Below are positions 20,220 to 21,307 of a stretch of 64,000 nucleotides of DNA, piece after piece. The position numbers were made by a program, and so were the translations under genes. The notes under the pieces were generated by a model, which saw only the letters and a program-made list of their open reading frames with translations, searched no databases and was not told the DNA's origin. This DNA comes from a virus (Duplodnaviria; Caudoviricetes), in IMG/VR virus record IMGVR_UViG_3300021185_002017. One strand, written 5' to 3'. The number at the start of each line of letters is the position of its first letter. Position 1 is the stretch's first letter.

Positions 20220-21089
20220 ATGACAAACAAACACAATCCATTAAGTTCGCATTTTAGAGCACCTAAACTTTTTGCACCTATTCCAAGTGCTGGAAAGTTT
20301 TACGACACTTCTGTGTTGGAAATGCCTGAAACGCTAGAACTACCTATATTTGCTATGACAGCAAAAGACGAAATGATTATGAAGAATCCTGATGCACTAC
20401 TAAACGGCGAGGCAGTTGCACAGGTTGTACACAGTTGTGTACCTAATGTCAAGAATGCTAGAGCAATGTTAAGCAGTGATATTGATGTATTACTAGTTGC
20501 TATACAAGGTGCCACATACGGCGATGAAGTAGAAGTAACTGCAGAATGCCCAAATTGTAATGAAGACCAAACCGGTGTTGCAAGTGTTGAAGAAGCAATT
20601 AGTAGCATGGGTACTCTAGAAGAAGAGTATGTTGTAGAGCATGACGGGTTAAAAATTCAAATACGACCTTTTACTTATGCCAGCACAATACAAGCAGGTA
20701 TTACAAATTTCCAAAGCACTAGAAGTTTACAAGCATTAGCAGATGTTCCAGATGAAATGGAAAGACTAAGTTTGTTTAACAACAACTTCAAGCAGATTGC
20801 TGCATTAAACTTTAGTTTAATAGTAGACAGTGTTTCAAGTGTTAGTTTCACAGACGAAGAAGGCGAGGAACAAATTGTTACTGACAGAAATCATATCACA
20901 GAATTTTTAGACAATGCAGACAGCAAGATTGGTAAATCAATCGAAGACAAAATTGCAGAGCTAAACAGCATTGGTATTAATCATGAAATGAAAATGCAAT
21001 GCGAAAAATGTCAGGAAGATAACGGTGAACCAGTAGTGTTCGAAAGCCGTGTAAACTTTGACCCAGTAAATTTTTTCACAGCTTCCTAG
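20220..21089 (+). CDS. gp26: gp26-like baseplate hub / tail assembly chaperone
   Basis: NPLSSHFRAPKLF..IPS.GKFY, MTAKDEMIMKNPDALLNGEA, CPNC and CEKC Cys pairs, ends FDPVNFF. Confidence 0.8.
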   Translation: MTNKHNPLSSHFRAPKLFAPIPSAGKFYDTSVLEMPETLELPIFAMTAKDEMIMKNPDALLNGEAVAQVVHSCVPNVKNARAMLSSDIDVLLVAIQGATYGDEVEVTAECPNCNEDQTGVASVEEAISSMGTLEEEYVVEHDGLKIQIRPFTYASTIQAGITNFQSTRSLQALADVPDEMERLSLFNNNFKQIAALNFSLIVDSVSSVSFTDEEGEEQIVTDRNHITEFLDNADSKIGKSIEDKIAELNSIGINHEMKMQCEKCQEDNGEPVVFESRVNFDPVNFFTAS

Positions 21090-21112
21090 CAACCTCCGAA
21101 CCAGAGGACATA

Positions 21113-21307
21113 GTGGCGTACCTAGGTAAGCTCAAAGACGATCAAACTGCCCTAAGCAAAAACATTGCTGAATTAGTAATATACAGTGAAGGTGCAGTTT
21201 CCTGGTCAGAGGCTTGGCATATCCCACCCTTAGATAGAGACCTGCTAATTAAAACACTTAATAAATTCAATAACGCCAAAGCAGGCAACAATAACGAAAT
21301 GCTCTAA
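21113..21307 (+). CDS. gp51-like small chaperone; possibly made only as a -1 frameshift extension of gp26
   Basis: SWSEAWHIPPLDRDLL motif; GTG start; its frame is open from 21062, across the gp26 AAT-TTT-TTC slippery run. Confidence 0.7.
   Translation: MAYLGKLKDDQTALSKNIAELVIYSEGAVSWSEAWHIPPLDRDLLIKTLNKFNNAKAGNNNEML

Follow-up and report, generated by a model that had tools for sequence, protein, structure and literature searches.

A candidate programmed −1 ribosomal frameshift joins a gp26-like gene to a putative gp51-type tail in a marine jumbo phage

Introduction

The 3′ end of a gp26-like gene in a marine phage raises the question of whether a single gene, read in two frames, supplies the pair of proteins that T4 encodes as gp26 and gp51. 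The gene lies in IMG/VR record IMGVR_UViG_3300021185_002017, of which a stretch of 64,000 nucleotides (nt), hereafter the window, was analyzed and on whose scale all coordinates are given. Its final codons are overlapped by an open reading frame (ORF) in the −1 frame, and a preliminary description of the window had read the two as products of a programmed −1 frameshift of the kind known from tail assembly chaperones. Frameshifted tail assembly chaperones include gpG/gpGT of phage λ, whose slippery heptamer is G_GGA_AAG, and E/E+E′ of phage P2; a conserved −1 frameshift of tail assembly chaperone genes was reportedly described by Levin, Hendrix and Casjens in 1993 and by Xu, Hendrix and Duda in 2004. 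The comparisons set out below strongly favor, at a probability of roughly 0.87, a gp26-like gene that makes a short and a long protein by programmed −1 ribosomal frameshifting, the long form being the putative equivalent of T4 gp51.

The slip site and the −1 frame

The gp26-like ORF (20220-21089, + strand) ends in CCA GTA AAT TTT TTC ACA GCT TCC TAG, within which two overlapping heptamers, A_AAT_TTT and T_TTT_TTC, both stand in the X_XXY_YYZ phase of that ORF. A second reading of 21062-21089 finds the sequence and the two heptamers exactly as first described. The −1 frame is open over 81 codons (21062-21307), and conceptual translation yields the fusion of about 362 amino acids (aa) that had been proposed, with a length of 362 aa and the junction ...DPVNFF-HSFLATSEPEDIVAYLGK. 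Slippage on either heptamer gives an identical product, the peptide across the junction being ...VNFF-HSFLATSEPEDI, and the conceptual junction peptide of the fusion is ...NFFHSFLATSEPEDIVAYLGK, or its equivalent in relatives. The frame-0 product, or short form, is 289 aa in length and ends three residues past its FF motif.

In the mechanism proposed for this gene, the majority of ribosomes would translate 20220-21089 in frame and release the 289-aa gp26-like protein. A fraction would slip back by one base on the overlapping heptamers (21068-21077) and continue in the −1 frame as far as 21307 to give the 362-aa protein. The long form would then carry a 76-residue helical tail, attached through a flexible joint to the folded gp26 domain that it shares with the short form.

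Conservation of the slip site in close relatives

Close relatives comprise 37 IMG/VR loci checked at the 3′ end, with gp26 proteins that are 55-84% identical, from which 27 distinct sequences were aligned. The −1 ORF occupies the same frame in all 37 loci, over 81-90 codons, and A_AAT_TTT is intact in every one of them, including 10 in which T_TTT_TTC is broken. The presence of two overlapping heptamers, of which A_AAT_TTT and not T_TTT_TTC is invariant among close relatives, is the novelty of the window's clade. When 20 cultured phages are added to the 37 IMG/VR loci, the in-phase heptamer is kept in 57 of the 57 examined relatives that have the extension. Alignment of gp26 3′ ends across relatives, a check that the preliminary description had suggested, thus finds a conserved slippery run with a −1 ORF always downstream: the relative frame is −1 in every relative examined, and no non-slippery synonym of TTT TTC occurs in the lineages that have the extension.

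The last 30 nt of gp26 (GAY CCN GTA AAT TTT TTC ACN GCT TCY TAG) are invariant at 21 of 30 alignment columns among the 27 distinct relatives, in a setting where the flanks of the block show approximately 40-70% majority-base conservation. Third-position entropy falls to 0.43 bits within the block, compared with 1.6 bits upstream. The substitutions that do occur can be read in both frames. The TTC>TCC change seen in 10 loci replaces F with S in frame 0 and is silent in frame −1 (TTT>TTC); it destroys T_TTT_TTC and spares A_AAT_TTT. Variation between TCC and TCT is silent in both frames, and the variable base of ACN is position 1 of a −1 codon, which then encodes S, G, or R. At the protein level the ending FDPVNF[F/S][T/M]AS is found in 120 of the 120 best cluster representatives from a collection of 5.8 billion proteins, and no natural fusion of gp26 to the extension occurs among those 120 best clusters. 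The slip-site block (21057-21089) may serve as a nucleotide probe for this phage group. Contigs in two of the same seawater runs (X17 and X1), otherwise unlike the window, match it solely over these 33 nt and differ from it on both flanks.

Homopolymer runs are error-prone in sequencing, and a frame break at such a run could in principle reflect an assembly error or a decaying gene. The window stretch is, however, present in 14 seawater metagenomes and six metatranscriptome runs, and the run and the stop are identical in the 14 metagenomes and in three RNA libraries; the protein end is identical in 120 protein clusters, and the in-phase heptamer recurs in the genomes of dozens of cultured phages, obtained by unconnected laboratories. 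An assembly error is accordingly rejected, the run, the stop, and the protein end being identical across metagenomes, RNA libraries, and clusters, and an explanation of this kind has a negligible probability.

Distant relatives and codon choice

Searches of translated nucleotide databases (tblastn) with the 81-aa −1 ORF return jumbo-phage matches that fall exactly at the junction of a gene annotated as baseplate hub and one annotated as hypothetical protein. Ten cultured jumbo phages were read at this place (Atu_ph07, Phosso, 121Q, RaK2, CBB, PA5oct, SCTP-2, XacN1, Xoo-sp13, and RsoM2USA), and in all ten a T_TTT_TTY in phase stands at the end of gp26, with a homologous −1 ORF of 73-91 codons after it; PA5oct, RaK2, and RsoM2USA have no annotated ORF downstream of gp26. 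The combination of T_TTT_TTN and a −1 ORF is also found in the cyanophages S-WAM1 and P-SSM7, Methylophilales phage Melnitz, Pseudomonas phage pf16, the Pootjesviridae OLIVR5 and AF3, and the Straboviridae LPCS28, Aeh1, and Vibrio phage D479. T_TTT_TTN stands in phase at the gp26 3′ end in 20 cultured phages of distant T4-like lineages, which include Rak2-like and other jumbo phages, cyanophages, Pootjesviridae, and some Straboviridae. The homologous −1 ORFs span 64-91 codons across all relatives checked, and the frame-0 product ends 0-10 residues past the FF motif across the phages compared. A further tblastn search with the S-WAM1 tail matches 636 phage records, and the matches typically span gp26 together with the small ORF that follows, among the 60 matches listed.

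The codons used at this site are unusually restricted. The codon before the T run is always NNT, for seven different amino acids (N, H, D, S, R, A, and V), and the first Phe codon is always TTT. In AF3 the frame-0 pair is F-L (TTT TTG), and the T_TTT_TTG run is retained nonetheless. Calculated over 14 deep lineages with each gene's own codon usage, the joint chance of the slip-site codon choices is approximately 1e-10. The run itself measures T6-T9 across lineages (T9 in RsoM2USA) and T5 in ten close relatives.

Independent initiation versus fusion

A separate small gene downstream of gp26, translated from its own start or by termination-reinitiation without any fusion, would also place an ORF at this position. 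The window offers an apparent start of this kind in GTG 21113, preceded by GAGG at a spacing of five nt; 121Q and AF3 have an ATG that overlaps the gp26 stop, so that a free small protein is possible there, a point that weighs against the frameshift reading; and small ORFs are annotated at this place in many genomes. The start is not conserved, in opposition to the independently initiated gp51 that the preliminary description had named as the contrary outcome: the window GTG is present in only six of the 27 distinct relatives, and seven of the 27 have no ATG, GTG, or TTG within the first ~47 codons. Protein-level conservation extends upstream of any start. Between the frame-0 stop and the GTG, −1-frame entropy at codon positions 1/2/3 is 0.85/0.66/1.45 bits, and after the GTG it is 0.93/0.66/1.46 bits, the same periodicity as before it. 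In an AlphaFold2 model of the extension, which contains four helices with a predicted local distance difference test (pLDDT) score of 81.5, the first helix and the beginning of the second are encoded upstream of the GTG. A separate gene would, moreover, leave both the invariant in-phase heptamer and the NNT wobble unexplained, and in T4 the gp51 tail is fused to a gp26-like domain. GTG 21113 is probably not used as an independent start, and a separate gene without fusion is very improbable. In a few genomes (121Q and AF3) the small ORF may also be translated independently, which cannot explain the family-wide pattern.

The small genes annotated at this place in other phages begin well within the conserved frame. 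Records carrying the label "gp51" or "baseplate hub assembly catalyst" include P-SSM7 (L057, 1330-1425), D479 (L058, 1324-1416), and OLIVR5 (L053, 1620-1760). Their annotated products measure 30-31 aa in P-SSM7 and D479, and 30-46 aa with OLIVR5 included, and the conserved −1 ORF in these three phages has 64-74 codons and begins inside gp26. The annotated gp51 genes are so short because they were started at the first ATG.

The conserved in-phase heptamer, the codon choices with their chance of ~1e-10, and the lack of a conserved start together support the programmed −1 frameshift that was first proposed for this locus.

Ribosomal slippage and the downstream RNA

The same protein would be produced if RNA polymerase inserted an extra U in the T run and the ribosome did not shift. 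Such transcriptional slippage is compatible with the T6-T9 run present in all lineages, the longest being the T9 of RsoM2USA. Runs of T6 are shorter than those usually needed for efficient polymerase slippage. Ten close relatives, moreover, have only T5 (AAT TTT TCC) and yet keep A_AAT_TTT, and the run always begins at codon position 3, as slippage of the ribosome on X_XXY_YYZ requires. Ribosomal slippage is favored because of this constant phase and because the T5 variants keep A_AAT_TTT. Contigs from three RNA libraries cross the slip site with the genomic run length and no indel, which also speaks against an inserted U; they are weak evidence on the type of slippage, since minor species are masked in contigs and the source may be DNA. 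Slippage by the polymerase is considered unlikely.

A pairing of CCTAG with CTAGG just downstream of the slip site had been put forward with the original proposal. The pairing is real, and it extends to 21080-21089 with 21122-21132 as part of the minimum-free-energy fold, at −13.4 kcal/mol. Its role as a conserved stimulator is unsupported. The z scores of the window stem, −0.6 to −1.0, do not set it apart from shuffled sequence; no consensus structure emerges from RNAalifold on the 27 relatives; and the spacer is short, at 3 nt after T_TTT_TTC, and measures 6 nt after A_AAT_TTT. These properties detract from the case for a stimulated shift in the window, and in the absence of an RNAalifold consensus the CCTAG/CTAGG stem is not a conserved stimulator in the clade. 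By eye, only the subclade with YLGK/YLEK tails retains the window stem, and there with register shifts. Hairpins are found past the slip site elsewhere, with z scores of −3.1 in PA5oct (6 nt from the site), −3.7 in S-WAM1 (9 nt), and −2.5 in Atu_ph07 (~18 nt), and none is found past the slip site in locus L024. The stimulatory RNA element may be lineage-specific and at best weak in the window.

The gp26 domain and its predicted structure

The product of the gp26-like ORF matches PF12322 (T4_baseplate) with an E value of 7e-18 (65.6 bits, cut-off 24.5), which is its only Pfam match, and phrog_150 with an E value of 2.5e-18. Four cysteines are conserved, C110 and C113 without exception throughout the close clade and C261 and C264 in 12 of 12 aligned proteins, including T4 gp26. 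The C-terminal FF motif (F285 and F286) is invariant across 12 distant members, again including T4 gp26. An AlphaFold2 model of the protein has an overall pLDDT of 79.6, with residues 282-289 as the only disordered part. The slip site falls within these residues, as expected for a joint between two domains. Neither the gp26 profile nor the extension profile has a sequence match in PDB. Comparison of the gp26 model with PDB structures (Foldseek; VIA-align wide) gives nothing beyond a generic helical hairpin, and comparison of the extension model with BFVD gives nothing informative beyond a 67-aa unnamed viral protein.

Relation to T4 gp26 and gp51

The statement that genes 26 and 51 are separate in T4 is correct: T4 encodes two divergently transcribed genes. 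T4 gp26 ends in ...KEFFELL, its FF being coded by G TTC TTT and so lacking a slippery site, and the T4 −1 frame opens only 10 nt ahead of the gp26 stop; gene 25 follows. T4, Aeromonas phage avDM7, and Acinetobacter phage 3014 (Aba3014) are alike in having no slip site, a −1 frame that holds only gene 25, and a separate gp51. The gene 25 frame opens 58 nt before the gp26 stop in avDM7. Gene 25 of T4, avDM7, and Acinetobacter phage 3014 (L004, 3803; L055; L056) starts in the −1 frame, overlapping the gene 26 stop, and there it occupies the position and frame that are held by a gp51-type tail in other lineages.

T4 gp51 itself matches PF12322 over residues 1-201 (E 4e-52) and phrog_150 over its full length, and its residues 147-246 match phrog_634 ("baseplate hub assembly catalyst"). 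By these profile matches T4 gp51 is a gp26 paralogue with a C-terminal tail, and it is that tail alone that corresponds to the −1 ORF. The term "gp51-like", applied to the −1 frame in the preliminary description, holds for the tail, with moderate homology (hhalign 56%) and colinear position; it does not convey that gp51 is itself a PF12322 gp26-family protein to which a tail is attached. The −1 ORFs of S-WAM1, OLIVR5, and LPCS28 match phrog_634 with E values of 1e-31 to 3e-8, and that of S-WAM1 also matches the C-terminal 50 positions of phrog_150. Conceptual frameshift products are colinear with gp51 proteins across the junction (FF-RVALMHDSL...MPWER... versus VF-KLLVNPDEI...IPAER...), and in the colinear alignment gp26 proteins terminate three to five residues past it.

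For the tail of the window the relation is less direct. It has no direct match to phrog_634, and alignment of profiles from 26 jumbo-type and 10 gp51-type tails by hhalign gives a probability of 56% (E 1.1e-4) over 34 columns, both of which temper its identification with gp51. The hhalign match covers the C-terminal motif (W/Y)S..E...M(S/P)..ER......K. A BLASTP comparison of the window extension with whole T4 gp51 is not significant (E 2.6). A tail-only hidden Markov model (HMM) matches most gp51-type tails weakly, at the colinear position, and with the full-length jumbo HMM the match extends ~25 residues over the junction in LPCS28 and Aeh1. Homology of the window tail to the gp51 tail is probable, with position the stronger argument and sequence the weaker one.

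A maximum-likelihood tree built from the common domain unites T4-group gp26 and gp51 in one clade (94/91) that is nested among single-gene Straboviridae. Because of this nesting, the tree suggests that duplication replaced the frameshift by two genes in the T4 branch of Straboviridae, with moderate support and an arbitrary root. The single-gene state, with its probable frameshift, is found across T4-like phages; in T4 the long form would be hard-wired as gene 51. If so, the locus provides an example of a recoding event that was replaced by gene duplication during evolution.

A possible chaperone role

The preliminary description had placed the pair next to the tape-measure gene. The gp26-like gene does adjoin a tape-measure-like ORF (16229-20059), and the two are divergently transcribed. 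Assignment of this neighbor depends on weak matches to phrog_4070, phrog_305, and phrog_991 (tail length tape measure protein), with E values of 2e-5 to 1e-3; it also contains hydrophobic Gly/Ala-rich blocks at residues 587-687 and 838-970, and the RaK2 gene in the syntenic position carries an annotation of similarity to a tape measure. By analogy with λ G/GT and from T4 genetics, the two forms would act together, in a fixed ratio, to assemble a complex of hub and tape measure, and the tail of the long form would supply a second contact.

A review of the T4 tail counts gp26 and gp51 among the chaperones of hub assembly, reports that gp51 is not part of the virion, and calls its function unknown (PMC3004832). 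The odds that the short and long forms have a chaperone role are about even on this analogy. Equally balanced is a broader proposal, in which gp26 and gp51 would be the missing G/GT-type chaperones of T4-like phages, ancestrally made in a fixed ratio from one frameshifted gene, with T4 as an exception derived by duplication. If true, it would account for the behavior of gp51 as a non-structural "catalyst" of hub assembly.

The frameshift could be real and the two forms nevertheless be structural or catalytic components of the hub, unrelated to the G/GT mechanism and not chaperones of the tape measure. This is a tentative reading, held with somewhat less than even confidence, and it draws on a series of observations that also tell against a chaperone role. 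Genetic hints place T4 gp26 in the hub (PMC3004832). No match to known tail assembly chaperone families or folds is found with Pfam, PDB, Foldseek, or VIA-align, and the homologue in CBB (L007, 2498-3355) is annotated as "structural protein". The gp26-like gene is divergent from the tape-measure gene and not upstream of it in the same operon, and the canonical order of tube, chaperone, and tape-measure genes is not seen here. On the other side stand the listing of T4 gp26 and gp51 as hub assembly chaperones, with gp51 not in the particle (PMC3004832), the adjoining tape-measure-like gene in the jumbo clade, and the production of a short and a long form by −1 slippage, which is a hallmark of tail assembly chaperones.

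Other observations bear on the same choice without deciding it. A complex prediction for gp26 with tape-measure residues 560-1000 has a score of 0.00, which is evidence neither way. In cyanophage-type genomes the gp26-like gene follows a tube-like gene; no tube gene is seen among the window ORFs scanned, and PF06841 is not found in five related IMG/VR contigs, where the controls are likewise blank. The two mentions of CBB_250 in the CBB paper appear to concern another gene (894 aa, gp5-like). The pair is classed as working like G/GT and not as a member of that family, because there is no sequence or fold likeness and the complex score is uninformative.

Implications for annotation

No frameshift in gene 26 or its homologues is found in the full-text literature searched, which includes the T4 tail review and the CBB, PA5oct, P1, and PRFect papers and does not cover subscription journals, and ribosomal slippage is marked in none of the database records inspected. 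Hundreds of phage records carry a truncated "gp51" of 30-60 aa or no gene at this place, among them those of cyanophages and of Rak2-like, PA5oct-like, and Atu_ph07-like jumbo phages. The appropriate annotation would be a ribosomal-slippage coding sequence of ~260-380 aa (259-380 aa among those checked). A concrete and testable model for gp26 and gp51 as a G/GT-like pair follows, because one gene appears to make both forms, gp51 is a paralogue with a tail, and hundreds of genomes retain the slip site.

Genomic context

The source of the window is a marine jumbo myovirus. Related IMG/VR fragments are 74-111 kb in length and are estimated to be 20-27% complete. A T4-type portal gene adjoins the tape-measure-like gene, and elsewhere the window encodes a T4-type major head protein, a prohead protease, a gp46/47-like nuclease, and a gp5-like hub/lysozyme protein. 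The features discussed here are collected in Table 1, together with two very long ORFs of 5616 and 1400 aa that presumably encode giant fiber or structural proteins.

Table 1. Features of the gp26-like locus and other features of the window
Feature	Position	Strand	Remarks
Tape-measure-like gene, presumed client	16229-20059	−	1276 aa; divergent from the gp26-like gene
T4-late-promoter-like motif GATAAATA	20155-20162	+	identified by eye; 58 nt upstream of gp26 ATG; a lead only
gp26-like baseplate-hub assembly gene	20220-21089	+	PF12322, phrog_150
Ultra-conserved dual-coding block	21057-21089	+	surrounds slip site
Slippery heptamer A_AAT_TTT	21068-21074	+	X_XXY_YYZ phase of ORF 20220-21089
Slippery heptamer T_TTT_TTC	21071-21077	+	X_XXY_YYZ phase of ORF 20220-21089
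−1 extension (putative C-terminal tail of long form)	21077-21307	+	76 codons + TAA
Candidate weak stimulatory stem-loop	21080-21132	+	10 bp, one bulge, 32-nt loop
GTG, apparent own start of −1 ORF	21113-21115	+	GAGG at 21104-21107 upstream (GAGG-N5-GTG)
Stand-alone SegE-like GIY-YIG endonuclease	22204-22629	−	PF19835, E 2.5e-33
gp55-like late sigma factor	26205-27080	−	291 aa; phrog_12791, E 4e-92; much longer than T4 gp55
Giant ORF	38417-55267	+	5616 aa; preceded by 1400-aa ORF 34206-38408

The flanks of the gp26-like gene show several minor features. In two independent RNA libraries contigs start at 20181 and 20182, positions that, coming from contigs, cannot define where transcription begins. 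Just past the stop of the extension, a weak hairpin with a T6 run (21308-21346, + strand) has a free energy of −9.2 kcal/mol and a z score of −0.9. It may act as a terminator between convergent genes and is not called by a pattern scan. Beyond the SegE-like gene (region 21700-22629, − strand) lie ~400 nt without a credible ORF.

Comparison with known systems

The closest counterparts of the window's −1 ORF in position are the small phrog_634 ORFs of cyanophages, Pootjesviridae, and KVP40-like and Aeh1-like phages, which share its −1 frame and a T_TTT_TTN at the end of gp26. They differ in their strong phrog_634 matches, which the window's tail lacks, and in being annotated as independent proteins of 30-58 aa, with ribosomal slippage marked in none.

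The parallel with λ G/GT is one of gene organization. A −1 slip, known in λ and predicted in the window, falls on an in-phase heptamer that precedes the stop of the upstream ORF by a few codons, its known or predicted products being a short and a long form with a common N-terminal domain, and the gene in both cases is a tail-assembly gene that adjoins the tape-measure gene; the T4 counterparts, moreover, are required for assembly, and gp51 is not in the virion. In contrast to the λ proteins, the window protein belongs to PF12322, an unrelated family, with ~280 aa and four conserved Cys. Its heptamer is U-rich and not G_GGA_AAG, and its gene is divergent from the tape-measure gene and not upstream of it.

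T4 differs from the window in having two separate, divergently transcribed genes, no slippery site, and gene 25 after gene 26. Relative to T4 gp26 (208 aa) and gp51 (249 aa), the window's domain is ~80 aa larger, and its tail is ~17 aa longer and weakly similar. The main domain is nonetheless of the same family in both phages (PF12322, phrog_150). T4 gp26 ends three residues past the FF motif, as does the window's frame-0 product, and the window's conceptual long form aligns colinearly with T4 gp51, tail included.

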